Shown: positions 1,398 through 63,015 of the stretch, one piece after another
How positions within the stretch are numbered: the stretch's first letter is position 1
Layout of the letters: each line of letters opens with the position of its first letter
Assembly: GCA_963842165.1 (NCBI GenBank)
Contig: CAWJFK010000005.1
Span: 198,070 to 262,069 of the forward strand
DNA length: 64,000 nucleotides
Source: an uncultured Thermoplasmata archaeon
GTDB taxonomy: Archaea; Thermoplasmatota; Thermoplasmata; Lutacidiplasmatales; UBA184
Reading direction: 5' to 3'
Position numbers and translations under genes: made by a program
Notes under the pieces: model-generated
The model's input: only the letters and a program-made list of their open reading frames with translations
The model's database searches: none
Told to the model about the DNA's origin: nothing

Positions 1398-2130
1398 TCA
1401 CTTGCGTTGGGCTTTTCGCGGGGGCTTGACGTACCCCCCCGCCAGGCGCTTCTCCTTCCCCTCGTAGTACGAATGCTCCGGATGCGCCTTGGGATTGGTA
1501 TCGTCCTTCCACCACATGTATCCGGTGTAGGGGGGTTCTATGTCGTCCTGCCAGAGCATGCAGAGGATCTCGCCCCGATGGAGGTAGTCCTCTTCGAGGA
1601 CATGCCAAATCCCCTCGCGCTCGGTAAAAATCCACTTTCCCCTTGTCGAGCCCACGTCATGCTTCCGGCGGAGCCGGGCTTCGGTCAGGGTGCGGCCGAC
1701 TTCCATCAACTCATGGTCGACCTGTCGGTCCAGCTCACGGAGCCGGTGCGCTCGTCACCCGGTCAAACTTCTTCTCGTTCAGGACCTTGAACAGGGGCTT
1801 GATTGACTGGCGACCGAACATCTTGACCAACCACCAAGTGTAGGCCCCGAGCACATGGAGGTGAACGTTCCGTATCGACCCGAACGTGGCTTCTCTGTTT
1901 CTCGTGAGCACTTCCCAAGGTAGCCGATCGTACAGGTCGAGGTACTTCGCACGGCTCCAACTCTGATACGCGATGATCCGCTGAGTCTCGTTCGCAAACC
2001 CCATGGTACCGCGGTCGCGGAGACGGTCCAACTCTGAATACCTTCCCAACTTCACCTCGTATATCGGCCGAACCTCAGAACGCGCGGCACGACGGGGGCT
2101 AGAACTGTTTGCAAGCACGATTGCGACCAC
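1398..2130 (-). CDS. DinB-family (DinB_2-like) protein, split by one frameshift near 1715-1735
   Basis: ORF 1735-2130 gives the N-terminal half (NVHLHVLGAYTWW). ORF 1398-1709 gives the C-terminal half with HVLEEDYLHRGEI, the typical DinB His...H-RG motif. A paralog lies at 57088-57616. Confidence 0.6.
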
Positions 2131-2337
2131 TCACCGCACTCTGCAAAAGACGCTCGCCGGAAGCATCCAGGGCTGTAAGGATGGGCTGGCCACTAAGATG
2201 TACGAAGTGCGTGGGAGTCGGCTGCTGCAACCAGATCCGCCGAGCTAGGAGGGTCTTAGTCTGCTCGATTTGACCCCTGCTTTAAGTACCCAACTTCAAT
2301 GAACTTTCGGGCGCAGAAGCCCAGAGGATGAGAAAGG

Positions 2338-3078
2338 ATGGCGTTTATTGACGACTTGGGGTTTAGTGTCGCACTGATCCTTGCCGGGGCAGCGGTCCTC
2401 TGCTACGCGTCCCTGCGGGGCTTCTGGCACATGCTCCGGAACGACCCTGCCCAACTGCGGGGGGCCATCAAGGGGTCCGCAATCCCCTCCGGCTTCATCG
2501 GCGCAGTTGCCCTCTCCCTCGGCCTCTTCACGGAGTACACTTGGCCCTACTTGCCGGCCGACGGACTCGGCTCGTATAACATCTTTTTTGGAGATGTCAC
2601 CTGCCTCTTTGGCATGGTCATGCTGGTCTACGCCATCGTCGCGTTCTATGGACTCAAGCTCGAGTACGCGGGCCTGTTCGGGTTCGTCGCGGGCATAATC
2701 ACCGCTTGGTATGGGTACTGGGGGTACACGACCCTGGTAAAGCCCGGTGTCTTCGGATTGACGAAGGACCCCCTCGAGACTTTCCTTCTCTACGGGGCGT
2801 ACGCGGCCGCAGGAGTTCTCTCACTTCCAGCCGCCTTGGTCGTGGATTACTACCTCGAGCACCCGGGACCTACATTCCCGAAGCTCTCGATGAGCAGGAA
2901 GCCCATTACGGACCCGGTCGAGGAGAACAAAGCGACCCCGGTGAGTGGCCGGTACCACGTGCCGTACTGGGTGTACGCGCTGACCGTCTGGTTCCCCATC
3001 TTCATGTTCCTGGCGGCGCTCGCGGCCTGGTTCTACATCGGAGACATCCTGCCGGGCCACCTCTCCAGTCCGCCCTGA
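2338..3078 (+). CDS. Polytopic integral membrane protein (possibly DUF981-like; family uncertain)
   Basis: ATG at 2338. There are 6-7 hydrophobic segments rich in G/A/Y/W. A TTTAAGTA box lies about 55 nt upstream. Stop is TGA. Confidence 0.7.
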   Translation: MAFIDDLGFSVALILAGAAVLCYASLRGFWHMLRNDPAQLRGAIKGSAIPSGFIGAVALSLGLFTEYTWPYLPADGLGSYNIFFGDVTCLFGMVMLVYAIVAFYGLKLEYAGLFGFVAGIITAWYGYWGYTTLVKPGVFGLTKDPLETFLLYGAYAAAGVLSLPAALVVDYYLEHPGPTFPKLSMSRKPITDPVEENKATPVSGRYHVPYWVYALTVWFPIFMFLAALAAWFYIGDILPGHLSSPP

Positions 3079-3222
3079 GGGGTAGGACGCCCAACCGGTT
3101 CAATCGACCGCGAGGGGGGCTGCCCAACCGGGTAGCTCCTCCCTCGCCCCGCCGCTCATGTGCAGCCGTTGCCACCTTGCGCGGGGGCGTCGGGGCAACT
3201 TCGATAGCGGCCCCCCCACCGG

Positions 3223-3994
3223 TCAATGTGTGGAACGTGAGGTTCGAGGAGGCGCCCTCGCGGACGCCGTCCTCCAGCGACCCGGCCTTCCCTGGCTCCG
3301 GAACCCGTAGAGCCCCAGTCCGGCCCTCCCGGAGGGCGTGGCATTCCGCCAACGGGCCCAGTGAGCTAGGGCCGGGCATAGACCTCCGCCCGGTCCATGA
3401 TCGACGATCGCGATCCCGCTTCGGGTCAATCGGGGATCGAGCCGGAAGAACTCCTGCTGGGAACGTCGGTCGTCGTGCGGGACGTCGTAGACGAACAGGT
3501 CCACTCGGTCCAATTCCTCGGTAAAGAGCGGGATGATGTCGGCCTTGTCGCCGATTCGAAGGTCCCACCGTGCGTCGGAGCGACTCCGGCACGGCCCATC
3601 CGGATTCTCGCCCCGTAGGAAGGGACCACGACGGGTTCTTGGATGCTGGTCGCGTCCCAGCGCGGGAGGGGGTCCGCTTGGGTCGGTCGATCGAATGGAG
3701 GGTTCCATGCTCATTCCGCTCGAGCGCCTGCAGTAGGTACGCCGAAGATACTCCCGAGGATACGCCGACCTCGACGACGTGTCGGGGGCGCACCAAACGG
3801 ACAATCGCGTACAGTTCTAGGGGCGCATCTATCTCGATGTAGGAGGCCCGTCCCTCTTTTGCGTGTTCAGCGGAAAGATGGTTGAACAACCGTCGTTCTC
3901 GACCGGCCTCCTGGACGAATCGGTCCGCCGCTCCCAGCTCGCTGGCCGTGAGCCCCGCGACCCACGGCACATCGACGTCGTCCTCGGCGCGCAT
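3223..3994 (-). CDS. Class I SAM-dependent methyltransferase (Methyltransf_24-like), frameshift near 3580
   Basis: N-terminal half has VVEVGVSSGVSSAYLLQAL (SAM-binding GxGxG-type loop). C-terminal half, in another frame, reads RWDLRIGDKADIIPLFTEELDRVDLFVYDVPHD...GIAIVDH. Confidence 0.6.
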
Positions 3995-4020
3995 GGGGTC
4001 AGTTCCTGCGAGGGTCCGTC

Positions 4021-4465
4021 CTACTCGAGAAGTCCCTTCGTATCTCCGATCCACTCCGAGGCGCGTTCCACCTTCGGGCGCGCTGCCAAGATCCGGTTGG
4101 TACGCTGCGTCCAAGCTGAGTTTCTCCGCTCGGTGGAGGTACCAGGCTCCCGCCAGAGGGGACCGACGCACTCCGTGACCACAAAACATCAGCACCGGCT
4201 CGTTCCGGGCGCGTGCGGCCCCGACCGACTTCGCCAGCTTGTCAAGGTTGGCCACGATGGCTCGGTCCGTCGATTCGTCGTAGATCTGGACATGCGTCCC
4301 CTCCGGCATATCGTCGGGCTCCTCATCCAGAACGCAGAATCGGGTTCCTCGGAATTTGGTCGCGTCCCTCCATCCACCGACGAAGACGTCTGGGGCGATT
4401 TCCGAGGGGCCGGCGGGTCGGGAACTCGGGCGCGCGGCGTGCGGGGGCTTCCGAGAGGCTGCCAT
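4021..4465 (-). CDS. Dual-specificity / protein-tyrosine phosphatase, frameshift near 4085
   Basis: Active-site loop is VLMFCGHGVRRSPLAG (C-x5-R-S). After LSLDAAYQ, a frame switch gives RILAARPKVERASEWIGDTKGLLE-stop (TAG complement at 4021-4023). As sequenced, the ORF instead runs on into the methyltransferase. Confidence 0.65.
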
Positions 4466-5658: not shown

Positions 5659-6781
5659 ATGAGCGGCCCCAACCGAAGCGCCAGCCGCGTTCGGGCGATG
5701 GCCCGTTCGGTCTTGGTCAAGTCCCTTCGCGTGCGAAAGAACGAGCGGGTGGTCGTGGAAGGCTGGACGGGCACCATGGAGGCGGCGAACGCCTTCGTCC
5801 TCGAGGCGTTGCGTCTGGGGGCCCAGCCGTTGCTCTTGTATCGGGACGAGCCAACCTATTGGGCCGCCGCGACCGAGATCCGCCCGCGGCTCTCGCGCGG
5901 ATAGGAGAGCACGAGCGGGCGGCCCTCGAACGGAGCGACGTCTTCGTCAGCTTCTTTGGCCCAAGCGATCGTGAGCGATTTCATGCGCTTCCGCGCGCCA
6001 CCATGCTCAAGCTCTGCGAGTTTCAGGACTCGCTCTACGATGCGGCGGCGAAGGCCGGGGCCCGGTCGGTTCAGTTGGCCCATGGTCGAGTATCGGAAGC
6101 GTCGGAGAGGATGTACGGGGTCGACCTCGACCGATGGCGCAACGAGCTGATTGACGCGACCTTGGTCGATCCGAAGGAGCTCGAACATCAGGCGCACCGA
6201 TTGGTGCAGCGGCTTCAGGATGGGAAAGAATTGACCGTTCGCCATGCGGGCGGGACCAATCTCCGTCTCGGGCTGCGGGGTCGCGTCCCCGACGCCGCGG
6301 TAGGAAAGGTGCGGGGAACCGACACGAGGAGGAAGTGGAACTTGGTCCAGCTGCCCGCAGGGGTGGTCACGGTCGGGCTGGACGAACGTGTCGCGGACGG
6401 GACGTTCTGCTCGAATGTCACGAACTCCGTGGGCGTCATGGATACGATCGGAGAGGTGAGCGGAGGGCGTTGGACCTTCGAGGACGGTGGTCTGAAACGA
6501 TTCCACTACGATCGAGGCCACCAGTTGTTCGCCCAGAGCTATGGCCGCGCCGGCCCGGCCGGGAGCGGCCCGGGATTCTTTCGATCGGGTTGAACGAACG
6601 GATCGAGATCGCGCCCCTCCTCCAGGACCAGGCCTACGGGGCGGTCACACTGCAATTGGGGAAGAACGATCACGTCGGGGGATCCAACCGCGTCAACTGG
6701 TGGGGCTGGCTCATCCTTCGGGGGGCTGATGTAGCGATCGATGGTGATCCCGTCGTTCGGGGAGGGAAGATCGTTCCGTGA
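5659..6781 (+). CDS. M29-family aminopeptidase (AmpS/aminopeptidase T-like), two frameshifts (near 5885 and 6565)
   Basis: Three consecutive frames give MARSVLVKSLRVRKNERVVVEGW...EALRLGAQP, then ...SDVFVSFFGPSD...ELTVRHAGGTNLRLGL..., then ...ILSIGLNERIEIAPLLQDQAYGAVTLQLGKNDHVGG. Confidence 0.65.
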
Positions 6782-7023
6782 CTGTCGGAAGACGATTCTC
6801 GCCTGTCGGACGCACATCTCGCTCGACGGACGAGCCCTGACCCCTGGAGAGGAAGTAGCCTCTGCTCGGGAAGGCCTCCTTCGATCTGAATGAGGGGTAT
6901 CCCACCGACCCGGACGGCATCGTGGGCCAGGGAAGCACGACCCGCGATTCTTCCCCGCCAGTAGGTGCGAGGGCCATTACACGCTGACGTTGCGTTCCTC
7001 GGCAGATGGCTCGACCAAACCTG

Positions 7024-7410: not shown

Positions 7411-7545
7411 TCGGGCGCTGACTGCTCGCGGCGGTTAAGTTGTTTGGCGGGCATCGATACAGTCTTCATTTAGAAGCGCGGACTGTCTGAGGCGAATCCA
7501 TTCGGAGTGAGCAGATGCTACCCCTGACGGAGCGGTACGCGAGGT

Positions 7546-8061: not shown

Positions 8062-8233
8062 CCAATCTCGATCTGAGTGTAATGTCAATTGCGCACACTA
8101 CCGGCGCGTTGCAAAGGGAACCTTTCGACCGCTCCGAATTGCTCAGCCCCCACCCAATCACCACGCCTCACGGGAGAGGGGCGAACCATCGGAGAGGCAT
8201 CCGGTAACTCGGGGAAGGTCCGTTCAGCAGAGC

Positions 8234-10044: not shown

Positions 10045-10126
10045 TGTCGGGGCGGCTACGATCTTGGGACGAGTTTCCGGGGGCAGGTTGTGGGCCTTTT
10101 AGGGGCTCCCCGCATCGGCGGAGGCT

Positions 10127-10555
10127 ATGCCCCCCAAGAATTCCACGGCCACGGCGGATGCTACGTCTGCGAACTTCGAGGCCCCGTCGATGGGCCTATT
10201 CACCCGCGACGTAAGTCGACTCGTCCGATTCTACGTGGGGCTAGGGTTCCGGGAGACGTACCGGAACTCCAAAGAGGGACCGCCCGACCACGTAGAGGTC
10301 AAGTTGGATGGACTCACGATTGGGATCTCATCCGTCGACGCAGCCGTTTCTACTCACGGCTTGAACCCGAACCTCGGGGGGCGCCCTGTTTACATTCTGC
10401 TTTGGACCCACGACACCGATGCCGCCTACAGTCGAATGACGGCTGGTGGCGCGGTTTCCCTCAGGCCACCCCAGGACTTCCTCTCCAATCTCCGTACGGC
10501 CTGGGTGGCCGATCCTGACGGAAATCCCATCAACATCGCGCACCGCAGACCCTGA
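10127..10555 (+). CDS. VOC / glyoxalase-bleomycin resistance family protein
   Basis: RLVRFYVGLGFRE...HVEVKLDGLTIGI...VADPDGNPINIAH. The start could instead be the internal Met at 10190. Confidence 0.75.
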   Translation: MPPKNSTATADATSANFEAPSMGLFTRDVSRLVRFYVGLGFRETYRNSKEGPPDHVEVKLDGLTIGISSVDAAVSTHGLNPNLGGRPVYILLWTHDTDAAYSRMTAGGAVSLRPPQDFLSNLRTAWVADPDGNPINIAHRRP

Positions 10556-10626
10556 GGGCGGAACGGGCTCTCGGATGGCGTGGCTAGCGATTGAACACGG
10601 GTCGGCATCCTAGAAGGTGATGGGGG

Positions 10627-11184
10627 ATGGCAGCTCCAGAAGAATCGGAGTCGGAGAGCTATCCCGATACCACGATTCGGAGAGTCAATTGGTCGGAGGA
10701 CCTCGAAACCGTCCGCCGCCTGTTCCAAGATTACCGGCAGTGGATCGCGGACCACGCAGAGAGTGCTCTCCCAAGCGATTCGATCCCCCCTCCCGGGCTC
10801 GCTCGCATCGACAAGGAGATCGCCGGGCTCCCCGGAGTTTACGGCCCACCCCGTGGAGATTTCGTTCTCGCATTCAAGCACGAGGCACTCGTGGCATGTG
10901 GGGCTCTCCGAGAACTCGAACCGCGCATCGGGGAGATCAAGCGGATCTACGTCCGGGCCGACCATCGAGGGCCGGGGTTCGGGCCGCGACTCACCCGGGC
11001 GCTTCTCGACCGAGCTCGCGAACTCGGGTTCGAGCGCGTGCGCGTGGACACGCTTCCAACCATGATTGCAGCGATCGAATTCTATCAAGCGATGGGTTTC
11101 AAGCCCATCCCAGCGTACTGGCCGCATCCAGTTCCCGGGGCCCTCTTCTTCGAGTACCAGGTATCTCAGCTTCCTGAGCCGTGA
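10627..11184 (+). CDS. GNAT family N-acetyltransferase
   Basis: GEIKRIYVRADHRGPGFGPRLTRALLDRARELGFERVRVDT...AIEFYQAMGFKPI (acetyl-CoA binding R/Q-x-x-G-x-G/A motif). Confidence 0.85.
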   Translation: MAAPEESESESYPDTTIRRVNWSEDLETVRRLFQDYRQWIADHAESALPSDSIPPPGLARIDKEIAGLPGVYGPPRGDFVLAFKHEALVACGALRELEPRIGEIKRIYVRADHRGPGFGPRLTRALLDRARELGFERVRVDTLPTMIAAIEFYQAMGFKPIPAYWPHPVPGALFFEYQVSQLPEP

Positions 11185-11264
11185 CTTCCCCGGACGAAAG
11201 GCTGCTCGCCCGATTCCCGAGCGGGGCTATGAGGTGACCTACGGTAGGGGTTGGCACTTCAGCC

Positions 11265-12266
11265 ATGGATCAGAGAACGTACTCGCTCCGGCCATTCGCC
11301 GACCCGGATTACCAGGAGGTGGCACGGATCAACGCGATCGCAGTACCGGAGTTCCCCGAAACCGCCGAGGACGCCCGACATTGGAGTGAACTCATCGCTC
11401 GCGAGCCGGGCCGACTGATGAGAAAGCTCATCGTCGAGGAGGTCGGGTCTGGGACCGTAGTCGCGTGGGGGGGCATCACGCACACGCTCTTCAATTTCCA
11501 CCCCCACAAGTACTTCGTTCGCGCGGTCGTTCACCCCTCGCATCGTGGGCGGGGGATCGGCCAGGAGCTCTACAATCGACTCGAGCAGGAGGCGGTGGCC
11601 CGAGGGGCTTTCTGCCTCTGGGGCAGCGTTCGGGAGGACGAGCCCTTCAGCCTCCGTTTTCTCCAACGTCAAGGCTTCGTTTCCCTGCGGAAGACTTGGA
11701 CGTCGCGCCTGAGCCTCGGCGAGTTGGAGCTCTCCAACCTTCCCGACCACTCGAACACCCTATCGTCCCTCGGGATTCGAATCACGACCCTAGCCGCCGA
11801 GGGAGCGGACCGACTCGAGACTCGCCAACGACTTTACGAATTGAGCCGGATCACTTCCGAGGACGCACCCCGGATGGGAGAGTATGAACCCGTCTCGTTC
11901 GAGGATTTCGTCGATATCGACGTCCAGCGCCCCACCGTCCTGCCGGATGCGATCTTCTTGGCCATTTCTGGGGAGAGATTCGTCGGCTGGACCACGCTTC
12001 AACGGTTGCGCGGGCTGCCGGACTCCCTCGACATCGGATTCACGGGAACGCTTCCCGAGTTTCGAGGTCACGGGATCGCATCTGAACTCAAGCGACGCGC
12101 TGTTGAGTACGCACGAGACCACGGATACCGATACATTCTCACCGGGAACGATTCGCTCAATCCGAGGATCTGGGCCATCAATGAGAAGCTGGGGTTCCGC
12201 CGGCTGATCGTGTTCGTTCAAGGCGAGAAGGACCTACGGCCGGCAGCGTCCCCCACGGCCGCCTAG
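11265..12266 (+). CDS. Tandem-domain GNAT acetyltransferase
   Basis: Two GNAT cores: VVHPSHRGRGIGQELYNRLEQEA and GTLPEFRGHGIASELKRRAVEYARDHGY...INEKLGFRR. Confidence 0.8.
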   Translation: MDQRTYSLRPFADPDYQEVARINAIAVPEFPETAEDARHWSELIAREPGRLMRKLIVEEVGSGTVVAWGGITHTLFNFHPHKYFVRAVVHPSHRGRGIGQELYNRLEQEAVARGAFCLWGSVREDEPFSLRFLQRQGFVSLRKTWTSRLSLGELELSNLPDHSNTLSSLGIRITTLAAEGADRLETRQRLYELSRITSEDAPRMGEYEPVSFEDFVDIDVQRPTVLPDAIFLAISGERFVGWTTLQRLRGLPDSLDIGFTGTLPEFRGHGIASELKRRAVEYARDHGYRYILTGNDSLNPRIWAINEKLGFRRLIVFVQGEKDLRPAASPTAA

Positions 12267-12517
12267 TGCTGGCCGGGCACTCGCTGGTCCGAGGGGGTGG
12301 CGGACTCTCCCCCGACCCCCGGGTCAATCGGTTGAGATTCCTCGACCAAGCCACTGGAGTGTTCTGTTTCGATGGATCTTCCGGATCCGTGTAACGTGCG
12401 TTGCGCTCACTGCGGACACGTCTAAGGAAGAAAGTGGGATAGACCCGGCCTCACGCTCCGATGGATTCCCGCTTCCGACCGACACACGGCTAATCTACTC
12501 CGACCCGATGTGAGGGC

Positions 12518-14512
12518 GTGGCCTCGGACCGTCAGCTCGCCGCCATCATGTTCACGGACCTGGCAGGGTTTACTCAGCTCACCCAAGCGAACGAGCCCCT
12601 AGGGATTCGGCTGATTGAGGAACAGGAGGCGCTGATCCGGCCGATTGTCGAAGCCCATCACGGCCGCCACGTCAAATCCATCGGGGACGGACTGCTCATC
12701 GAGCTACCAAATGCCCTGGACGCGGTCGAATGCGCAGTGGAGATCCAACGCCAGGTTCACGAGCGGAACACGGAGCATGAGGCCCAACCATTGCGGGTGA
12801 GAATCGGTCTGCACCTGGGGGACGTCCAGCGTCGGGGCGCGGATATCGTCGGCGACGCCGTAAACGTCGCGTCGCGAATCGAACCTTTAGCGCAACCCGG
12901 CGGCATCTGCCTGTCCGAGCAAGTGTACGCCCAGGTGCGAAACAAGATTCCGTTTCAACTTGAGAGACTCGGCTCGAGAACTCTCAAGGGGGTCCGCGAC
13001 CCGGTGGAGATCTACCAGGTCGTGCTGCCGTGGATGGCGGGCACGGTGACCTCAGGGACCATGCCCCCTACTCGACTTGCCGTTCTACCGCTCTCGAACA
13101 TCAGTCCCGATCCGAACGACGAGTACTTCGCGGATGGCCTCACCGAGGAGCTGATCTCGGTCCTGTCGCGCATTCGGGGTCTGAGAGTGATCGCCCGAAC
13201 CTCGGTGACCCAGTACAAGTCCAGCCCCAAAACGGTCCGTCAGATCAGTTCGGAACTGGCCGTCGGAGCGGTCTTGGAGGGCAGCGTCCGAAGGGCCGGG
13301 ACTCACCTGAGGATTACGCTGCAACTGATCGACGGGGCGACCGAGGAGCACCGATGGGCGGAGACCTACAACCGGGAGCTGCGGGACGTCTTCGAGATTC
13401 AGGCAGAAGTGGCCGAGCGCACAGCCGAAGCGCTGCGCCTCGAACTCCTTGGGACGGAACGCGAAGCTCTCCATCGAGCCCCGACACGAGACATCGAGGC
13501 GTACGAGCTGTACCTGAAGGGGATCGCCGCGTTCCAGCGAACCGCGGACGAGGGCTGGAACCGACGGGGCGTGGACGAAGCCACCCGCTATTTCGAGGCG
13601 GCGATCTCCAAGGACCCGGGCTCGTCGGCTGCGCACTCCAGCCTGGCGAATCTCCTCATCGCGGCGATGGGGGAAGTTTGCTCCCGCACGGAGGTGGAAT
13701 CTCGGGTGCGAGAGCTCGTCGACAAGGGTCTCGCGCTGGGGCCCGATTCCGCTGATGCGCACACGGCGCGCGGGAACTTTGCCCTCCAATTCGAGTCCGA
13801 TTGGGATCGGTCAGAGGCGGAGTTCCTGAAGGCGATATCGTTGAACCCAAGCAACTCAGCGGCCCATGGCTGGTACGGGATTCTCCTTCGGACGCTGGGC
13901 CGATACGACGAGGCGCTCCGGCAGTTCAGACTCGGGGCCGAGGTCGACCCACTGTTCCGACAATTGACGTACTGGCAGATTCGGGTCTTCGAGAGCGCAG
14001 GGGAGCCGAAGCGAGCGCTCGCTGTCGCGACGGAGGCGTTGGCCCGGGACCCTGGCAACCGTTTGCTCCACGCACAGATGGGGATGGCGCTCCTTGCACT
14101 GGGCCGCTCCCAGGAGGCCCGACAACACGCCGACATGGCGGCGGGACCCGTCCGCGACGCCGGCACGGCGGTCGTCCGGGCCGAATTCCTCGCGGCGCTG
14201 GGTGACTCGAGCGAGGCGCTGCGCCTCGTGAAAGATTGGGAGAGAGACCCCGAGCAGTTCTACATCCGAAGGAATTTCATCGCCGCCCTTCTCCTGACCG
14301 TAGGGGAGAAGGAACGGGCCCTGGACCTCCTCGAGAAGGACGCGCGAGAGGGGGAACGGAGTTTGTGGATCGATTTCCGTCGGCCCGTGTTTAACTCGAT
14401 TCGTGATGAACCCCGGTTCGTTTCTCTTCTGAAAGAAATGAGATTGCCGACGGTCGCCCCTGCGCCGATGCGGAGCCTGACCACTAGTGGCAATATCGCC
14501 CGCAATCCCTAA
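12518..14512 (+). CDS. Class III adenylate cyclase domain / TolB-N-like domain / TPR repeat protein (paralog 1)
   Basis: GTG start. Cyclase motifs are IMFTDLAGFT, KSIGDGLLIEL, GLHLGDV and DIVGDAVNVASRIE, so the metal Asp pair, Lys/Asp specificity pair and Asn/Arg are all present. This is followed by LAVLPLSNISPDPNDEYFADGLTEELI and then TPR-like helices. Confidence 0.85.
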   Translation: MASDRQLAAIMFTDLAGFTQLTQANEPLGIRLIEEQEALIRPIVEAHHGRHVKSIGDGLLIELPNALDAVECAVEIQRQVHERNTEHEAQPLRVRIGLHLGDVQRRGADIVGDAVNVASRIEPLAQPGGICLSEQVYAQVRNKIPFQLERLGSRTLKGVRDPVEIYQVVLPWMAGTVTSGTMPPTRLAVLPLSNISPDPNDEYFADGLTEELISVLSRIRGLRVIARTSVTQYKSSPKTVRQISSELAVGAVLEGSVRRAGTHLRITLQLIDGATEEHRWAETYNRELRDVFEIQAEVAERTAEALRLELLGTEREALHRAPTRDIEAYELYLKGIAAFQRTADEGWNRRGVDEATRYFEAAISKDPGSSAAHSSLANLLIAAMGEVCSRTEVESRVRELVDKGLALGPDSADAHTARGNFALQFESDWDRSEAEFLKAISLNPSNSAAHGWYGILLRTLGRYDEALRQFRLGAEVDPLFRQLTYWQIRVFESAGEPKRALAVATEALARDPGNRLLHAQMGMALLALGRSQEARQHADMAAGPVRDAGTAVVRAEFLAALGDSSEALRLVKDWERDPEQFYIRRNFIAALLLTVGEKERALDLLEKDAREGERSLWIDFRRPVFNSIRDEPRFVSLLKEMRLPTVAPAPMRSLTTSGNIARNP

Positions 14513-14562
14513 GGTCCGAACTAACGGGCCAGAACCCCTCGAGTGAATTCTGGCAGGCCGCT

Positions 14563-14585
14563 GGTCGAAGGGTGACTTGCACCCA
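14563..14585 (+). repeat. Intergenic TGCA-box motif copy
   Basis: GGTCGAAGGGTGACTTGCACCCA, 51 nt after the stop of 12518-14512 and 126 nt before ATG 14711. Confidence 0.7.
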
Positions 14586-15968: not shown

Positions 15969-17012
<1,044 letters not shown>

Positions 17013-18876: not shown

Positions 18877-18946
18877 GGAGCGTCCTCGATGGCTAGGGTA
18901 GGATAACCTCATCGCGAGAGAAGACACCCATCCCGGCTTACCCCGC

Positions 18947-18970
18947 TGGTTGCAACCTCGATTGCACCCA
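18947..18970 (+). repeat. Intergenic TGCA-box motif copy (near-palindromic)
   Basis: TGGTTGCAA-CCTCGA-TTGCACCCA, in the divergent spacer between the ABC ATPase and SRPBCC genes. Confidence 0.8.
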
Positions 18971-23001: not shown

Positions 23002-23046
23002 GCACCGTACTCACATTGAACCCGCTACGGCAGCGCTGGCTTAGGT

Positions 23047-45540: not shown

Positions 45541-45564
45541 TGGGTGCAAGGAGACTTTCAACCA
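45541..45564 (-). repeat. Intergenic TGCA-box motif copy, opposite orientation
   Basis: TGGGTGCAAGGAGACTTTCAACCA on the + strand. The reverse complement reads TGGTTGAAAGTCTCCTTGCACCCA. Confidence 0.7.
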
Positions 45565-46945: not shown

Positions 46946-47213
46946 ACACACTTATCATCGGAACATATATTTAAAGTTATGTGGATGGGTGATCTAGTCG
47001 ATCGATTTAGGATCCGCTACCGAGCATCGGGGTCAGGAAAGCGCACTAAGGGGGCCGACCCGCGTGAAAAGGTGTAACGCGACTTACACCCAGAGTGGGT
47101 GAACGTTTCGTTCTACCCAAGGCAGGGTCTGTTCTCGTAAGGGCAACGCGTCCTGCGCCCAACCTAGCACCAAGCCTCCAATACAAGGTCGGGCCTAGCC
47201 TGCCTTGAGGGCC

Positions 47214-47426
47214 ATGTTGGGGAAAGAGAACTGTCCCCATTGCGGGCAGGCAATGGAAATCGGCACGCTCGGAACCATGTCGTACGTCGCTGGCGCCGCT
47301 TGGTACAAGGAACGGTCAGCACTGGCGCTCAACGGAGAAACCATCGTGAAGGCTCCGCTCGGGGGCATGATCTGGTTAGATGGGCATCGATGCGCTCGAT
47401 GTCACCTGCTCCAAGTGCGCTACTGA
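47214..47426 (+). CDS. Small zinc-ribbon protein (70 aa)
   Basis: CPHCGQ...(43 aa)...CARCH, i.e. paired CxxC motifs. Confidence 0.45.
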   Translation: MLGKENCPHCGQAMEIGTLGTMSYVAGAAWYKERSALALNGETIVKAPLGGMIWLDGHRCARCHLLQVRY

Positions 47427-47544
47427 TCAATGCTACTGAAAGTGCGTGCACCGAATGCCCTACACCTGCCCGGGAGGCGAGCATGGGGCCGGCACCGAGA
47501 AAGGGGCAACGTCGATTTCACCCACGCCGGTTCCTGTCGCAGAT

Positions 47545-47633
47545 GGCTGCATGCTTCAATGCACCCAGATCGCTTCCGATGAGTGCAAGCGCGTTTGCAC
47601 CTACTGTGGCAAGGGTGAATACTCTTGCAACCA
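47545..47633 (+). repeat. Cluster of three adjacent TGCA-box copies
   Basis: GGCTGCATGCTTCAATGCACCCA (47545-47567), GAGTGCAAGCGCGTTTGCACCTA (47581-47603) and GGTGAATACTCTTGCAACCA (47614-47633). Confidence 0.7.
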
Positions 47634-48094
47634 TCCTAACGGTTGGACTGGCGGGCAAAGAGTGGGTTGAACCCTAGGATCCGCTTACACAATCTGGCTG
47701 TATCTGCTTCTCACTCGAATATACAAGGCTGCGGGCAAGTCTTCCGACGGTTAGTGTTTCGAGGTCGGCCAGAGAATCGGGGTGGATCCGATCAGGCTCG
47801 CCTTCACCACGGAATTAAGTACTACCAAAGCACGAATCATACTCGATGCAGACCTGGCTCGAATTCGCCCTGGTGATGGTACCTATTGGATTTGCAATTG
47901 GGCTGCTCTCGCCTTGGATTGCGCGCGCCGATTATCGTTGGCGAGTGCTTCATGCGCCGAGACCCCCACAAGGAGCTCTGGCCGATTCTAAATCCGGAAC
48001 GGACCGCCACTAGCCGCCCATTCTCGTTCAGCCGGACTTCTAGCATAACTGCCCAGACCTTTGGCTATCAACCACCGCCGAGGGTAGCCTGTAC

Positions 48095-49342: not shown

Positions 49343-49476
49343 TCTCTACCCGATTCAATCTTTGTCCCTCCCAGCAGATAAATCAGTCGTCCAGTAAGCT
49401 GGCTGTTATCGAGGTTTCATGAGGTGGTAGAACACACAGAAACGCATCATTTCCTTCAATCAGCCCGTATCGTGTT

Positions 49477-49540
49477 GTGTGCAAAATCGATTACACCCAT
49501 GCTTTGTCCTGTTCGAAGTGGGTGCACGAGGCGTGCACCC
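49477..49540. repeat. Two adjacent TGCA-box copies
   Basis: GTGTGCAAAATCGATTACACCCA (49477-49499) and TGGGTGCACGAGGCGTGCACCC (49519-49540). Confidence 0.7.
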
Positions 49541-50448: not shown

Positions 50449-51198
50449 CGACCGGAATTACAATCGAGGCGACCTCGTCGCTCATGAACGCGCCACTCTC
50501 GACTCAGTCCATACAACTTTGGGCAGCTGGGGCATAGACAAGATGGCACTTGGATCCGACGGATACCACAGGGTTACTTTCGGAAGATACCCGCCGGCCG
50601 CGGCCACGTCCGGCGCCTCGCGTATGCGACTCGCCGCCATTTTGGGGGACGAGGAGGTAAGCGTTCGAGCCAGTTGAATTCTTACGTCACTCTCTGGAAT
50701 TGCTTTCTCCTAGCAAACACGAACTGCGACGCCCGGAATCGACTCAATCGGCACGTATGTGAAATGGACCTTTCACCCACTCCGCCACCTGAGTCTTGTT
50801 AGGATCCAACTGAGCCCGCGTGAAGGGGGCTAGGTACCCATTGGGGAAATATTGCACTACCCCCATTGTCCGCGCTAAGGCGGTACCCAATCTACCCCAC
50901 GCGGCGATCCCTGAGCGTGTTCGAGACCCGTTTCGACATATCGGTCCGCGAGTTCGGGCCGGGCACCGACGAGACGGTCAGGGCCAAGTTCATGGAGGGA
51001 CTCTTGGGGGCGCTCGAGCGATGATATCGTCACCATCGATTCGATACTCGAGATGGAACCGGTCATCCCCGCCGTATGCTGCTGGTGTTCGAGGGCGACG
51101 AAGATTTGAGCGAGTCGACAGGATTGGCGATCGCGCTTACTGGTGCCCGCATAATCCATATCCTCCAGTCGAATGCGGTAATCTGAAGGGTGCGAACG

Positions 51199-53407: not shown

Positions 53408-53431
53408 TAGGTGCAAAGGGCCATACACCCA
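53408..53431 (+). repeat. Intergenic TGCA-box motif copy
   Basis: TAGGTGCAAAGGGCCATACACCCA. A close relative, TAGGTGCGAGGGCCATTACACGCT, lies at 6962-6985. Confidence 0.7.
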
Positions 53432-53688
53432 ACCGCGGCCGGAGGATTTGATTGCTCTCGGGAGTTACCCACTGGCGAGAGATTTCGTCTTTGGCAAGGG
53501 GTCCCTTAACAAAATCCGAGGAATGGGTGTAACAGTCCTTGCACCTACAGGACCGGAACGATGGCGTATCCGATCCTCAGATTCGTTTCCAGCCGGTTCG
53601 AAGAGGGCTTTTAGCTGGTTCTTGTCTCTTGAGCGAGATGGGGACCCCCGGGACGAACACTTGGGACGAACGCCGGGTTTGGGAGGCG

Positions 53689-54460: not shown

Positions 54461-54477
54461 GACGAGTGCAAGACGGT

Positions 54478-54500
54478 GGTTGAAAGGTTGATTGCACCCA
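54478..54500 (+). repeat. Intergenic TGCA-box motif copy
   Basis: GGTTGAAAGGTTGATTGCACCCA, 18 nt after the GNAT stop in a convergent spacer. Confidence 0.75.
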
Positions 54501-54992: not shown

Positions 54993-56919
54993 TCAAGCGA
55001 GCTTAGCCTTCTTCAACAACGCCTCAAACCTCGGATCCCTCCGAACGTGCTCAAACACTGGATCAAGCCGTAAGTCGTGGAAAGCGATGTACGTGGGGCC
55101 TTCGACGGCGTGCTCCAGCCGGCGTAGGCTTTCCTCCACGTCTCCGAGTGCGGCGTACATCCAGGCGAACGACCATGTGCCGAAGCCGGGCTCCGGCAGC
55201 GACTCTTCCTCTAGAAGCAGCGCTCGGCACTTCTCGTTCTCACCGGAGAACGCACAGTACACCGCGCGAAGCCACCGCTTAGAGTCGGGGTCGGATTGAA
55301 GATTCTCTAGTCGTGAGATTTCCTTTAGAAAGAGGTCGGTTTCCCCCTGAATCCGGTAGTAGGAAGCCAAGTTTCCATGATAGGTTTCACCGTCGGGCTG
55401 CAATTCTCCCAACTTCTGAATCCGGGCAAACGCCTCTTCAAACTTTCCCAGCCAAGTGAGTAGATGAGCATGGTGCGAGAGGTTCCAAGGGGAAAGTGGA
55501 TCGGATGCCTCGGCCAGCGCCCACTCTGAGAGCGCCTCCCCAATCCGAACCTGCCACGAGAGCAACTCTGGCGTACCAGTGATGCGCCTGCGAGTAGCTC
55601 GGGTTTAACGAAAGGGCGCGTTTGAACTCCTTTTCGGCTCCGGCCCAGTCCCAGTCGAGCCAGAGGGTGGCCGCCGAGGATGCATGGGCCTCGGCGAGAT
55701 TCGGGTCGAGTTCGATCGCCCGTTCTGCCAATCGTCGGCCGGTCTCTTTCTGCTCCTTCGCTGACATCCCGAGTTGGGACGACCCATACAGACGAACGAG
55801 GTCAGACAGACCGGAATAGGCAGAAGCGTTCTGGAAATCCAAGGTGATTGCGAGATCGAACTGCTCATGAGCCGCTTTCCAAGAAACTGTGTTCTCTTGA
55901 TGCATGAGGGTGCGTCCCTTCAGGTAGGCGAGGTAGGAATCCGGCCGCACTGTGGGCGTGTTGTCTAGCCTGGCCCCTTCGGTGGGCTGGAGTTCGACCC
56001 TCAGGCTTTCCGCAACCAGTTTGGCAATCTCGGCTTGAACTGAGAACACATCATCAAGTTCCCGGTCGTAAGTCTTCGCCCAGAGATGCCTGTCTGAACG
56101 GGCGTCGATCAGCTGCGCGGTGATCCTTAACCGGTTCCCGGCTTTCCGCACGCTCCCCTCAAGGATGGAGGTGACGCCCAGTTCCGTTCCGATCTGGGAG
56201 GCCGACTTGGGTGTGGCCTTGTACAGCATCACCGAGGTACGAGAAATGACACGAAGCTCTCGCAACTGGGAGAGGACAGTAATCAGCTCCTCGGTGAGCC
56301 CATCAGCAAAGTACTCGTCTTTGGGGTCTGGGCTAATGTTGGAAAAGGGAAGGACAGCGATACCGGCTGGACTGGAGCTCTCCGAGCTGGCCCCGCCCAG
56401 GGCCCGAGGAGGAACCACACGGTATAGGGACAACGGCGTTCTCAATCCCTTGAACTCCATTGGCGGAAGCTTCTCGATTCCTTCCGATACTTTGTTCCAC
56501 ACCTGTTCGTGCACGGCGTTCGAGATGCAGATACCGTCGGGTTCGGCGGCGGCTTGGATTCTAGACGCGATGTTCACCGCATCGCCGAAGATGTCGCTCC
56601 CCTGCTCCTCGACGTCTCCCAAGTGGATGCCAATGCGGAGATGGAAGGGAGCGGCCCCGGGTCCTGCGTTGCGCCCAGAGACTCTCCGCTGGATCTCTAC
56701 GGCGCATTGAGTCGCCCGCAGAGCGCTGTCGAATTCGACCAGAAACCCATCCCCCATCGACTTGATCTCGCGCCCTTGGTGGGCGGTAAGAACGGAGCGG
56801 ACGAGTGCCGCTTGCTCCTCGCGGAGCTTGAGCGCCGCGGCCTCGTTGAGCTGCGCCGCGGCGGTCGAGCCGACCATGTCAGTAAACATGATGGCGGAGA
56901 GTCGACGAACTGAGGCCAC
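54993..56919 (-). CDS. Class III adenylate cyclase / TolB-N-like / TPR protein (paralog 3), frameshift near 55560
   Basis: GTG start. IMFTDMVGST, KSMGDGFLVEF, GIHLGDV, DIFGDAVNIASRIQ, then IAVLPFSNISPDPKDEYFADGLTEELI. After ...SQAHHWYARVAL the TPR region continues in ORF 54993-55565 (SWQVRIGEALSEW...). Confidence 0.8.
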
Positions 56920-57087
56920 GGCTCGAAAGCCGCTTCTGTTAGATTAAGGCCCTGCAGGCGCCATGGGTTGCCCGAAAGGGGCCGGTTTGCTAATGACCGG
57001 GTCGCCAGATGGGGGGTCTGTAGACCCATCCATTGAAGTGCGTGCAACAGTTGTTGCATACAGGTCGCGCGTTGAACTCGCTCGCCG

Positions 57088-58254: not shown

Positions 58255-58278
58255 TGGTTGCAACAGACCTTGCACTCA
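58255..58278 (+). repeat. Intergenic TGCA-box motif copy
   Basis: TGGTTGCAACAGACCTTGCACTCA. Confidence 0.7.
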
Positions 58279-59759: not shown

Positions 59760-59937
59760 GACCCTCCTATAGGTCCAATAGGACTAATAGTTTTCACTTT
59801 GGGAGGGGTGGTGGACGAAGGGGGCGGTCCGGGGGTCGTGTATCCGAACTGAGACTGAGCGCCGGAAATTCAACCGCCGTGTTGAGCCGAAGCCTGCAAG
59901 CCGGCGCAAGAGACCTTGCACCCGGCGACTTTTCGAC

Positions 59938-60351: not shown

Positions 60352-60432
60352 ATCCAGGGGAGTGATTCCGGCTGATATGCTGGATCGGTAGAACAGACCT
60401 TTGATCCACCAAAGCTGCAAGCAGACGAGTCG

Positions 60433-60456
60433 TGGTTGCAAGACCGATTGCACCCA
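60433..60456 (+). repeat. Intergenic TGCA-box motif copy (near-palindromic)
   Basis: TGGTTGCAA-GACCGA-TTGCACCCA. It differs from the 18947 copy only in the spacer. Confidence 0.8.
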
Positions 60457-60536: not shown

Positions 60537-61100
60537 TCAAAGGTGCCCTGTAGGTCGGTACGTGATGGACAGGACCCCATTCTCATTCCGGATTAAGTCG
60601 ACGATCTTCATCTTCTGCGATCCGAACTCGCCGTCAAAGAGCCGTGCGCCCGTACCCGCGACGATAGGAAACAGCATGAGGTGGAGTCGGTCGAGAAGAT
60701 TGTTCTGGATCAGAGAGCGAACGAGAGAAGGACTCCCATGTACCCCGATGGTCTTCCCACGCTGTGACTTGAGTTTGAGAATGGACTTCCGAAAGTCACC
60801 CGATACCACGGTCGCGTTACCGGCAGTGCCCCAGGGGACTTCCTTCAACGAATTGGTCACAACGTACTTTTGCACCGCGTTAATGTGATCGGCGAACGGC
60901 TGGATCTTCGAGGACGGCCAAAACTGCGACCACGCGTCGTACGTCTTGCGGCCCAAGAGCATCGCGTCTTCCTGAGTGAGCTGCCAGGACATGTCCTTCG
61001 CGACCTGACCGTTGGACATCCGAAAAACGGCTTCGTGCACGGCCTCAAATGTCACGACTCCATCAAGAGTAATGATCAGGTGCGCAGCGACTTCTCTCAT
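60537..61100 (-). CDS. Dihydrofolate reductase-like / RibD_C family protein (paralog 3)
   Basis: MREVAAHLIITLDGVV...MLLGRKTYDAW...TIGVHGSPSLVRSLIQNNLLDRLHLMLFPIVAG. Confidence 0.8.
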   Translation of the reverse strand: MREVAAHLIITLDGVVTFEAVHEAVFRMSNGQVAKDMSWQLTQEDAMLLGRKTYDAWSQFWPSSKIQPFADHINAVQKYVVTNSLKEVPWGTAGNATVVSGDFRKSILKLKSQRGKTIGVHGSPSLVRSLIQNNLLDRLHLMLFPIVAGTGARLFDGEFGSQKMKIVDLIRNENGVLSITYRPTGHL

Positions 61101-61492
61101 ATGCTGGACCTCTCGACCTGTCGAGACTCCCACTTCATACCGACTTTGATCATGGACTCCTCTAATAGACCGACTCGGGCTCGACCTGATAGGAACATCG
61201 TGTCAAAGCGGCTTCGGGAACCCGCATCGGGGTGCTGACAACAGCTCAGCGGTCACGCTCCCCTCGTGAGTGTGTGCAAGACTACTTGCACGTCCCCTTG
61301 ACGCGAATTCTTGGCAATGACATGGGCAAGAATCGACGGTACCATGGTTTGGGCTGGCAATCGTCAGGTCTCGCCTTCCTAGCCCTCGCGGCAATTCGTT
61401 AGAAGATTGAGGTGAGCCCCGGCCCACAGCCCAGTGTTCACCGCCCGAATGGGGACGAAGCTTGATATCGCATGCGCGCATGCATTTCTGGC

Positions 61493-61690
61493 ATGGCCGG
61501 AGCCGACACGTCCGTAAGGGTCTCGCGAGAGACGTTGTGCGACCTCGAGCAGCTTCGCTTGGCGTTCCATGTTCGCACGGCCGACGAGACGATTCGCAAG
61601 TTGATCCAAGAACGACGATCGCGTGCCCTGGACCGACTGTTCGGGAGCGCGAAGCGCCTATGCGCCGTTCCGGGAGGAAGACCGTCTTGA
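61493..61690 (+). CDS. Putative VapB-like antitoxin
   Basis: 65-aa ORF MAGADTSVRVSRETLCDLEQLRLAFHVRTADETIRKLIQERR, overlapping the start of the PIN gene. Confidence 0.45.
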   Translation: MAGADTSVRVSRETLCDLEQLRLAFHVRTADETIRKLIQERRSRALDRLFGSAKRLCAVPGGRPS

Positions 61691-62094
61691 TTCTCACTAT
61701 TGACACGTTTGCGTGGGTCGAAATGATGCGGGGCACCCCACTCGGCAATCGAGCCAGGCAGGCTATGAAGGATTGTGATACGTGCGTCACCCCATCCATC
61801 GTGCTGGCTGAGGTGGCCTCCAAGTGCCTACGCCTTGGTCTCGCGGACCCCCTCATACGGGATGAACTCTACGCGATTCACGAAGCCTCGACGATCGTAT
61901 CCATCGACGACTCGATTGCCACCGCGGCTGCCCACGCCACCAAGGAACTCAGGCAGGACAGCCGTACGTCAAAGCTGGGAGACCCTGGCCTTGCAGACGG
62001 GCTGGTTCTCGCCACCGCGCGTGTGCTAGGCGCAAAGTTGCTCACCGGGGATCCCCACTTCCGCGCCTGCGAAGAAACCCTCTGGTTGGCCTAA
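61660..62094 (+). CDS. vapC: PIN-domain VapC-like toxin
   Basis: VLILTIDTFAWVEMMRGT (first acidic residue), IVLAEV, ...LADGLVLATARVLGAKLLTGDPHF (C-terminal Asp). Confidence 0.75.
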   Translation: MRRSGRKTVLILTIDTFAWVEMMRGTPLGNRARQAMKDCDTCVTPSIVLAEVASKCLRLGLADPLIRDELYAIHEASTIVSIDDSIATAAAHATKELRQDSRTSKLGDPGLADGLVLATARVLGAKLLTGDPHFRACEETLWLA

Positions 62095-62221
62095 CCTGGC
62101 GTGGGGAGTGGGATCACTCCGTTGCCACGGTCTAGGGGTGCAACGGACCTTTCACACCCTGCCGAGGAATCATCAACCGCGGCACTCAATAGGATGTTCA
62201 ACGGATACACAAGGGGTCCCG

Positions 62222-62866
62222 CTACCCGGGTTTCTGCTGCCGCCCCAAGTACTCGATTCGAAGGGCCGTGACCCCTTCGGCAAGTGGAATCCTGGGGTGT
62301 TCGTCGATGCGAGAGCCAGCATTCCGAGCGCACTCCAAGAGATGGGGGATACACTCTGGAGGCAGAAGCAGTGTGAACGGGGTCCATAGGGTCCAGGAGT
62401 AGATCACAAGCCGAAACGGTGATGGTTCGGGGCGTCTCGATGGCCCCCCCTTTCTGTTCCTCGAATCGTAGATTGTGAACTTGAGCCTGGCATTCTCCCA
62501 AGGGAATTCGGCTACTTTGTTGTTCGTGTAAGTGACCCGCAAGCCTGCGTTGTTGACGGCAAGTTTACCCGGACTTGGCCCCCTCCAACTCCACCAAGAA
62601 CTTACGAACACAAAGAGTGCTAACGCGCCGAACGCAATCGCAAATACCTCCAGTTCGGGGTAGTAAGTTGACGGCGTGACTTGAGTGCAGCCGCCCTTCG
62701 CGCATACGGTTAGGGTATGGGGTGGGACGAATAGTATGTTGTAGATAAGCTCGGCAGCAAGTACCGCAAATAAAACCCCGACGCCGATGAAGATGTAGGA
62801 ACCCGTCCGATTGAGTCTATGCTTAGGCGCTGCGAGGTCGCGCACGTCGTACTCTCTTGTAACCAT
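62222..62866 (-). CDS. Two-TM membrane protein with a C-terminal domain related to that of 26523-28124
   Basis: TM segments YIFIGVGVLFAVLAAELIYNILFV and VFAIAFGALALFVFVSSWW, then LAVNNAGLRVTYTNNKVAEFPWENARLKFTI. Confidence 0.5.
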   Translation of the reverse strand: MVTREYDVRDLAAPKHRLNRTGSYIFIGVGVLFAVLAAELIYNILFVPPHTLTVCAKGGCTQVTPSTYYPELEVFAIAFGALALFVFVSSWWSWRGPSPGKLAVNNAGLRVTYTNNKVAEFPWENARLKFTIYDSRNRKGGPSRRPEPSPFRLVIYSWTLWTPFTLLLPPECIPHLLECARNAGSRIDEHPRIPLAEGVTALRIEYLGRQQKPG

Positions 62867-63015
62867 TCGGGACTCCGTGCTAGCGTGCGTGGCCCCTTAG
62901 AGGTAAAGGGTGTAATCGACCCTGCAAGCAGGCCCAAGGGGATGGCGGCACCCCCGGCCCAATCCTCCGCGCGCTTCGAGTCGGGATGTGACACCCAAAA
63001 AGGCGGGCGAACGCC

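Follow-up and report, generated by a model that had tools for sequence, protein, structure and literature searches.

A 24-bp dif-like palindrome between the accessory genes of soil and peat Thermoplasmata, a probable recombination site of mobile gene cassettes

The DNA considered here is a stretch of 64,000 nucleotides, hereafter the window, from contig CAWJFK010000005.1 of assembly GCA_963842165.1, an uncultured Thermoplasmata archaeon (Lutacidiplasmatales, UBA184). Its G+C content is about 60%, and neither tRNA genes nor Rfam matches were found in it. According to Pfam, the window encodes GNAT acetyltransferases, a glyoxalase, three RibD_C proteins, SnoaL and DinB-like proteins, toxin–antitoxin (TA) genes of the PIN, HEPN/MNT and AbiE types, TetR and HTH_10 regulators and an ABC transporter. 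The most recurrent cargo is an adenylate-cyclase-TPR gene, of which the window holds three paralogues, at 12518-14512 (+), 35751-37688 (-) and 55438-56919 (-). HTH_10, DUF981 and DUF7577 are archaeal Pfam families, and homologues of the transposase and of a RibD_C protein carry the NCBI name 'Thermoplasmata archaeon'. Between many of these genes lies a short palindrome, present in 40 copies, and it is this element that we analyse.

Each copy consists of two inverted 9-bp arms around a 6-bp spacer, TGGGTGCAA-N6-TTGCACCCA, 24 bp in all. In a symmetrised logo the arm reads T-G-G-G-T-G-C-A-A and is followed by six poorly constrained bases and the reverse complement, with no conservation outside the 24 bp. 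The arms have a weak tenth position and the spacer is fixed at 6 nt, which is the layout of a simple tyrosine-recombinase core site of the Xer/dif type: two inverted arms and a centre of 6-8 bp. Many sites begin GT[GA]G. The sole clear spacing variant in the window, GGTGCAA-GGTCCTG-ATGCACCCA at 37916-37940, has a spacer of 7 nt.

The motif is real and occurs far beyond chance. An earlier note on this DNA, drawn from the letters alone, had counted the 8-mer TGCACCCA by hand 12 times on the + strand, and this count is exact; both strands together hold 16 copies against 1.6 expected. The regular expression proposed in that note has 12 matches in the window, where 0.02 would be expected, and GGTGCAA-N6-TTGCACC with up to three mismatches has 32, compared with 2 in Markov shuffles. 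An iterated position weight matrix (PWM) converged on the 40 sites, every one of which scores at least 15 bits. The same PWM found 4 sites of at least 15 bits and 15 of at least 13 bits in control loci from unrelated soil bacteria, 1.42 Mb in total and similar in G+C content; the control rate is about 0.7 per 64 kb, as against 40 in the window. These control loci had been returned by a genome-contig scan with an aldo/keto reductase of the window and come from unrelated bacteria with 70-80% identity to it. Thirty-four of the 39 positions listed earlier were recovered as sites. Those at 30378 (a single arm), 37916 (the 7-nt variant rather than a standard site), 43700, 49519 and 52594 found no support, and copies at 24203, 37943, 47138, 47501, 53524 and 60385 had been overlooked. 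The description as an extragenic imperfect-palindrome family holds, as does the remark that no described element with this consensus is known: the searchable literature, which is incomplete, yielded neither the motif sequence nor a comparable archaeal system. The right half, in contrast to what had been noted, is not better conserved than the left. The consensus palindrome is symmetric and looks otherwise only because near-palindromes had to be oriented; site polarity derived from PWM orientation was abandoned for the same reason, since that orientation is arbitrary and yields a spurious 'better right arm'. A reading of the element as similar to a DNA uptake sequence was also rejected, because half-sites hardly occur alone: apart from about 2, the 16 TGCACCCA matches fall within or next to one of the listed paired copies.

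Related DNA was sought by a metagenome scan with TGGKTGMAANNNNNNTTGCACCCA, which returned 120 stretches, many of them from peat or soil, with 57-63% G+C and several further copies each. Together with contigs fetched through RibD_C homologues, they gave a non-redundant set of 51 contigs (469 kb; individual relatives are designated by L numbers) with 228 sites, or 0.49 per kb, at a median neighbour distance of 1.24 kb. Judged from this set, the motif is lineage-wide in soil and peat Thermoplasmata, and it does not appear to be genome-wide. Zero sites were found in the housekeeping region of L229, another Thermoplasmata contig of the same sample, and zero in L230, 21.6 kb of large helicase genes on a 2.3-Mb contig around a 99.6%-identical copy of an insertion sequence of the window. 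A scan of viral contigs with the motif gave 11 single matches, which is chance level. In L222, a relative on a 2.18-Mb contig, the sites are fewer and weaker (GGTGCGA-type, 14-19 bits; e.g. 6245-6268 and 7469-7492), as if they were decaying or had been retuned.

By rough gene calls, 36 of the 40 window sites are intergenic and the other four lie in doubtful N-terminal extensions of open reading frames (ORFs); in related contigs with independent gene calls all 30 of 30 sites are intergenic. The motif thus avoids coding sequence, exceeds its frequency in shuffles and extends far outside the window, the three outcomes on which the earlier note had made its own proposal depend. Its statement that almost every spacer is occupied is too strong, since 33 of the 61 window spacers of at least 60 nt contain a site (tandem 17/35, divergent 8/13, convergent 8/13). 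Spacers without a site have a best PWM score of 10 or less and show no degenerate remnant. Equal occupancy whatever the gene orientation, together with this on/off presence, excludes a role specific to promoters or terminators; a promoter reading was rejected on the occupancy of the spacer types, in agreement with the earlier opinion that the motif is not a core promoter element.

How the arms vary indicates what reads them. If the element acted as an RNA or DNA hairpin, serving as a transcript 3' end, a terminator or a stability element, its consensus could form a 9-bp stem with a 6-nt loop, and many copies do lie downstream of genes. The 40 window copies even have a slight excess of paired cells (74.4% vs 72.3% in shuffles; 12 of 500 shuffles). 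Across 141 sites, 888 Watson-Crick arm pairs were observed and 881 expected (z = 0.9), and the larger set free of bias, 101 sites that were not ascertained by the search pattern, has no excess pairing at all (z = -0.5). Double changes that restore arm pairing occur at the chance rate only, and the outer four arm pairs are unpaired in 32-42% of the window copies. Furthermore, the motif matches no Rfam family, archaeal termination relies on oligo-T tracts, and 8 of the 13 divergent spacers, where 3' ends are unexpected, contain a site. With no compensatory covariation and with sites in divergent spacers, the RNA 3'-end hairpin that had been among the candidate functions is disfavoured, and we regard it as very improbable. 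The arms vary independently, and it is the half-site sequence and the fixed spacing that are conserved, not the pairing; this points to recognition by a dimeric protein rather than to a selected hairpin. In a more distant relative (L227/L228) both arms are altered in concert, to TCGGTGCAA..TTGCACCGA (e.g. 4238-4261 and 18890-18913).

Such a protein might simply be an abundant dimeric DNA-binding protein, whether nucleoid-associated, a boundary or insulator factor or a global regulator, whose sites mark the borders of transcription units and are carried by gene modules as part of their flanks. A symmetric palindrome with independently varying half-sites, strictly intergenic and usually present once per occupied spacer irrespective of gene orientation, would suit this explanation, as would the concerted change of both arms in the distant relative. 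It sits less well with the roughly 45% of comparable spacers that have no trace of a site and with the absence of sites from the housekeeping and large-gene regions of related contigs, and it meets further difficulty in the comparison of gene order.

Homology between the window and its relatives comes in blocks the size of genes, and many of the block boundaries are located within a site; window modules recur in the relatives in other orders and next to other neighbours. Non-redundant site pairs from different contigs were compared wherever at least one of their 150-nt flanks was homologous: in 62 of them the homology is limited to one flank, and in 1 it extends to both. Identity of at least 60% over the 20 nt abutting the core is found on the shared side in 19 of the 62 and on the other side in 1. 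In intergenic spacers of 150-400 nt, breakpoints placed at random would seldom hit a site of 24 bp. Assembly chimeras are, by inference, an unlikely source of these junctions, given that copies share at most about 10 identical bases and that the same states recur across several samples. Several window sites illustrate the pattern (here and below, sites are 24-bp arm-N6-arm units without assigned strand, and scores are PWM bits). At 21605-21628 (21.1) homology to L211 runs through the right flank as far as the arm, and the left flank is unrelated. The HTH_10 module is bounded by 28282-28305 (24.6) on the left, where it is shared with L215, and by 29277-29300 (28.8) on the right, where it is shared with L102. 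The site at 60433-60456 (30.6) is a boundary of the RibD_C module at 60537-61133, which L204 also has, and the spacer of this site is co-inherited with the module.

One locus was found in three states, between a RibD_C gene (22312-23001) and a gene for a 93-aa protein (24275-24556). It is empty in L211, L215 and L183, where the two genes are separated by the single site TGGGTGCAA-CAAGCG-TTGCAACCA (spacer CCAGCG in L183). In the window, sites at 23046-23069 and 24203-24226 enclose a 1.16-kb HEPN/MNT TA pair (cassette 23070-24202, -; genes 23103-23501 and 23504-24223, by Pfam). In L224 the interval has grown to 6.16 kb and comprises three site-bounded modules: DinB with a recombinase and an adenylate cyclase, the same TA pair in inverted orientation, and a YdjM gene. 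Both window sites are hybrids. The left one combines the RibD_C arm and CAAGCG, common to the RibD_C-side site of L211, L215 and L224, with a foreign right arm that belongs to the cassette. The right one joins a foreign left arm and GACGCG, which travel with the cassette, to the arm of the 93-aa gene, CTGCAACCA, which matches the right arm of the empty site. The TA cassette is also present in L139, again between two sites and with unrelated flanks. In all three contexts (window, L139 and L224) the right arm at its start and the left arm plus GA[C/A]GCG at its end are the cassette's own; the adjoining arm varies with the neighbour, and spacer CAAGCG stays with RibD_C in four contigs. The cassette ends have direct polarity, so that excision would restore exactly the empty site of L211. 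As in integrons, the comparison of empty and filled loci describes a cassette as cargo plus one site whose excision leaves one hybrid site. Such a structure would be expected from recombination between a circular cassette bearing one complete site and a site in the chromosome, if strands crossed over at one edge of the spacer.

The spacers of neighbouring sites tell a similar story across the arrays. In 186 pairs of consecutive sites on the same contig, at least 200 nt apart, mean spacer identity in direct orientation is 2.70, compared with 1.72 for random pairs, and 30 pairs (16%) are identical at five or more of the six positions, as opposed to 2.7% at random; in inverted orientation the identity of 1.76 is no more than random. 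Similar overlap sequences on both sides of an inserted segment are of the kind that conservative site-specific integration yields. The recurring spacer types reported earlier also stand, with 148 identical spacer pairs against 38 expected, only 8 of which are explained by flank homology. The most frequent classes are GCGCGA (10 times), CGCGTC (6 times) and CAAGCG (5 times), and self-complementary spacers are rare (1 of 268).

Direct-orientation similarity of neighbouring spacers is also predicted, in common with integration, if the modules are non-autonomous transposons with terminal inverted repeats TTGCACCCA...TGGGTGCAA, N6 being a 6-bp target-site duplication common to abutting elements, and arms that behave as protein-recognised ends would agree with this. 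A target duplication should follow the host, whereas at the MNT end of the TA cassette the spacer GA[C/A]GCG is the same in three unrelated contexts and the spacer at the other end is that of the host, the opposite of what duplication would give. In L139 the flanking spacers share one of six positions, and the only DDE transposase seen, that of IS1634, has its own ends. We consider transposons of this kind quite improbable. For the abundant DNA-binding protein introduced above, homology that ends inside the 24 bp, and not anywhere in spacers of 150-400 nt, remains unexplained, as do the hybrid structure of empty and filled sites and the sharing of spacers between neighbours. The global operator or chromatin site, a second function proposed at the outset, fails in the same way, leaving the synteny breaks exactly inside the motif unaccounted for, and we judge this explanation improbable.

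Candidate enzymes are encoded within the arrays themselves. A search with a loose catalytic-motif pattern and tblastn (a stricter pattern missed the HDLRRT family) found that five motif-rich relatives each encode one intact tyrosine recombinase: L128 (6533-7588), L163 (9436-10407), L179 (3733-4749), L204 (268-1275) and L224 (11361-12332). In L155 a recombinase fragment abuts two sites. Array sequence contains about one intact gene in 90 kb. Identity among the five proteins is 49-79%; they share the catalytic signature HDLRRT...[Y/F]GH...Y and all match Pfam Phage_integrase. Among NCBIfam models archaeal XerA fits them best, at 66-77 bits with a cutoff of 220, and integron-integrase models give 27-42 bits with cutoffs of 265-435, which argues against IntI. 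The best PDB match of the L224 recombinase, the only one searched, is XerA of P. abyssi. By these scores the array recombinases are best described as a distinct Xer-like family rather than XerA orthologues. In four of the five relatives an adenylate-cyclase-TPR gene is located in the same module as the recombinase or in a nearby one (L224 12466-14418, L163 10493-12607, L128 and L179).

Some of the features described so far recall REP/BIME elements. The palindrome could belong to a selfish or domesticated extragenic family spread by a trans-acting RAYT-type (IS200/IS605-like) transposase, with the rearrangements being incidental and the repeats merely hot spots of recombination. It is indeed an extragenic imperfect palindrome of high copy number whose central loop varies, some copies are packed into tight doublets and triplets, many copies start GT[GA]G, and common descent of the copies would likewise leave no compensatory change. 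What such spread does not predict is a cassette whose own arm and spacer stay with it through three contexts, similarity between neighbouring spacers in direct orientation, or Xer-like recombinase genes inside the arrays; moreover, flanks and spacers are unrelated among copies, so they are not recent duplicates. The earlier note had advised looking for a RAYT/IS200-like gene: no Y1/RAYT gene was seen among the roughly 70 window ORFs scanned with Pfam or among the Pfam-annotated genes of L222-L230, a small fraction of any of these genomes. None of the three functions it had offered fits best, and the REP-like family stays as a weaker rival that we consider unlikely.

Taken with the anatomy, placement and breakpoints above, the motif probably serves this Thermoplasmata lineage as a dif-like core site of recombination, at the borders of mobile gene cassettes. 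Enzymatic, conservative recombination would account for the hybrid sites and direct-repeat spacers, the system would most likely be of the tyrosine-recombinase type, and the Xer-like family of the arrays is its presumed catalyst. Several points weigh against this interpretation and keep our confidence moderate. The support is wholly comparative and comes from metagenome assemblies. No tyrosine recombinase was found in the window itself by sequence patterns or tblastn, and the recombinase family is tied to the site by co-location alone, its action on the motif being presumed. The arms are of 9 bp, not 11, and the inner arm sequence is CAA-N6-TTG, not the TAA-N6-8-TTA that is the hallmark of archaeal dif. 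Canonical tyrosine recombinases need overlap identity, and even the partner spacers of the best case are not identical (CAAGCG vs GACGCG, 4/6), while those flanking the L139 cassette agree at 1/6. A cassette model does not explain the approximately 45% of spacers without a site, nor does a simple one predict the tight doublets and triplets, with sites 25-45 nt apart in 26 of 216 gaps, that recall REP/BIME clusters. There is one clean locus with empty and filled states, and the other junctions could reflect paralogous genes in different places. Indeed, some of the one-flank pairs are surely paralogues, so their count overstates mobility, although the position of the break stays informative.

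If the dif-like reading is right, each 9-bp arm (TGGGTGCAA/TTGCACCCA) would bind one recombinase monomer and the asymmetric 6-bp spacer would be the overlap region of strand exchange. Sites between the transcription units of long accessory-gene arrays would delimit modules of one to a few genes, each a cassette flanked on one side by a single arm and on the other by the second arm together with a spacer of its own. Recombinase dimers on the arms would synapse two sites with similar spacers and exchange strands at the spacer edge. Excision would release a circle that bears one complete site, and a single hybrid site would stay behind in the chromosome; the circle could then re-insert at another site in either orientation, and the array would thereby be reshuffled. 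Between sites of opposite polarity, modules would be inverted. Where spacers match only in part, the partners might, like integrons, exchange a single strand and leave its resolution to replication.

The remaining window sites complete the array. From the left, they are located at 2106-2129 (21.5 bits), 6962-6985 (17.7), 8074-8097 (24.7), 12386-12409 (19.4), 14562-14585 (21.1), 18947-18970 in a divergent spacer (30.2), 20260-20283 (29.1), 24674-24697 (18.3), 26287-26310 (17.2) and 31237-31260 (18.0). Copies in convergent spacers include 31771-31794 (23.1; spacer class GCGCGA), 35676-35699 (27.1), 54477-54500 (34.8) and 62135-62158 (20.3). Further copies are found at 34345-34368 (15.2), 42827-42850 (26.9), 45541-45564 (29.3), 49476-49499 (22.4), 50756-50779 (26.1), 53408-53431 (22.1), 53524-53547 (30.0), 57039-57062 (22.2), 58255-58278 (29.5), 59901-59924 (20.6), 61271-61294 (24.9) and 62907-62930 (20.4). 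Two are weak: 37943-37966 (16.7), near the 7-nt-spacer variant at 37916, and 60385-60408 (16.8), which forms a doublet with 60433. Six sites lie in a gene-poor 1.1-kb spacer (46952-48094) as two triplets, the first at 47069-47092 (20.4), 47096-47119 (17.2) and 47138-47161 (15.4), the second at 47501-47524 (23.5), 47544-47567 (19.1) and 47580-47603 (27.3). The triplets enclose a segment of about 340 nt, of which 47203-47428 is 77.5% identical to the likewise site-flanked 3477-3703 of L138; a tiny cassette and a non-coding RNA are both conceivable.

Other observations concern the modules and their surroundings. The conserved sequence CTTATAGCTATCGGCGGA, with a TATA-box-like core, ends 5-7 nt from a site on the module side in L102 (~6842), L157 (~619) and L215 (~896), so that some modules may be equipped with a promoter of their own at the very boundary. 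The multi-gene module between the sites at 14562 and 18947 includes an aldo/keto reductase (15969-16958, -) with 70-80% protein identity to homologues in Acidobacteriota, Verrucomicrobiota, Myxococcota, Planctomycetota, Cyanobacteria and others, suggestive of a recent cross-domain transfer. A 1,722-bp IS1634-family element is present in the window in three copies, at 1-1285 (cut), 38528-40247 and 40980-42699, that are about 99% identical to one another and 99.6% identical to the copy at 9880-11601 of L230 (2.3-Mb contig, sample ERZ25039587). Two of them, 732 nt apart, bracket an AbiEi-like gene (40247-40948). The element was rejected as a marker of the lineage: L081-L090, which encode a 70%-identical transposase, have no copy of the motif with two or fewer mismatches and 5 weak PWM matches of at least 13 bits in 120 kb.

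The search pattern also caught a different type of site. In L152 a gene for a 470-aa tyrosine integrase (10216-11628, -) has, 112 nt beyond its 3' end, a perfect TGGGTGCAA-[A/C/G]CTCAG-TTGCACCCA (10081-10104) and then a third TGCACCCA. The same arrangement is found in L115, L125, L133, L140, L142, L144, L153, L156, L159, L178, L192, L206 and L209. The flank on the integrase side is conserved and the opposite flank is different in every contig, so that it looks like the end of an integrative element. These CTCAG-type sites are the most frequent exact metagenome match, and they were rejected as proof because the named homologues of the integrase belong to Sulfotelmatobacter/Terriglobales (Acidobacteria). 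They represent a separate element of a different organism with the same palindrome, and they were not used as evidence.

More tentatively, the arrays may reflect chromosome-scale, integron-like gene shuffling in a soil and peat Thermoplasmata lineage, by means of 24-bp dif-like sites and private Xer-like recombinases. Hundreds to thousands of sites per genome would then make most accessory genes excisable, invertible and exchangeable cassettes, with spacer classes as compatibility groups and with a route of entry for bacterial genes; we see this as possible, though short of probable. If true, it would be a third independent way, after integrons and the dif modules of Acinetobacter, in which a tyrosine recombinase and a short repeated site make mobile cassettes, and the first such system to use simple dif-like sites in the chromosomes of archaea. 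The very fluid accessory gene sets of uncultured soil and peat Thermoplasmata would then have an explanation, and the acquisition of bacterial genes, such as the aldo/keto reductase of the array, would be easier to understand. How much overlap mismatch the recombinases tolerate, and whether spacer classes partition the cassette pool, would become testable questions, and a compact 24-bp site with matching recombinases might serve as a tool. The motif is a ready marker for such arrays in metagenomes.

The closest known systems are the pdif/dif modules of Acinetobacter and the cassette arrays of integrons; the site system described here works like both and is a member of neither. The modules of Acinetobacter plasmids are Xer-dependent (PMC6449649; PMC13141974; PMC12907356). 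As with pdif, many short dif-like palindromes, made of arms and a 6-bp spacer, flank modules of one to a few accessory genes, including TA pairs, the same module occurs in different contexts, and adjacent modules share a site. In contrast to pdif, the host is an archaeon and the site-bearing contigs are of 0.17-2.2 Mb (397 kb for the source of the window) rather than small plasmids; the arms are of 9 bp with CAA-N6-TTG at the centre, as opposed to 11 bp and TAA-N6-TTA; and dedicated Xer-like paralogues are found inside the arrays, where pdif modules depend on host XerC/D alone. The pdif sites around a module are inverted, whereas the ends of the resolved cassette and the spacers of neighbouring sites are here generally in direct orientation.

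A single archaeal dif site per chromosome serves dimer resolution together with XerA (PMC2958812; PMC8371274), and dif sites have an 11-6-11 layout (PMC2958812). The elements of the arrays resemble it in their inverted arms around a 6-bp spacer, in their intergenic position and in the recombinases, which are closest to XerA among known families. They differ from it in number, with a site about every 1.2 kb and 40 copies in 64 kb, and in that the recombinases are not XerA orthologues (66-77 bits vs a cutoff of 220).

Short extragenic palindromes with a variable centre, present in hundreds of copies, in clusters, at rearrangement breakpoints and at insertions of foreign DNA, are also known as REP/BIME elements with their RAYT transposases and as the dRS3/NIME repeats of Neisseria. 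The present motif shares with them the high copy number, the extragenic palindrome with a variable centre, the clusters and the position at rearrangement breakpoints. Unlike them, it has arms that are recognised as sequence at a fixed 6-bp spacing, cassette-specific spacers and tyrosine recombinases in the same arrays, and no RAYT- or Piv-type gene was seen among the annotated genes.

Integron cassette arrays are known from bacteria and archaea (PMC9668308). Like these, the Thermoplasmata arrays consist of small accessory genes separated by recombination sites, with a cassette made up of cargo and one site, the loss of which leaves one hybrid site, and with a crossover that maps to one border of the central region, beside the TTG...-type arm. 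The cargo is also typical (TA pairs, GNATs, glyoxalases, DinB and SnoaL) and includes one gene of apparent bacterial origin. In contrast to integrons, there is no IntI, the array recombinases scoring far below integron-integrase models; genes lie on both strands, the cassette is inverted in L224 and no attI/Pc platform was seen. Finally, the attC site of integrons, with its R''/L''/L'/R' boxes, spans 55-140 nt and is recognised as a folded single strand, whereas the site of these arrays is a 24-bp palindrome of the double-strand type.

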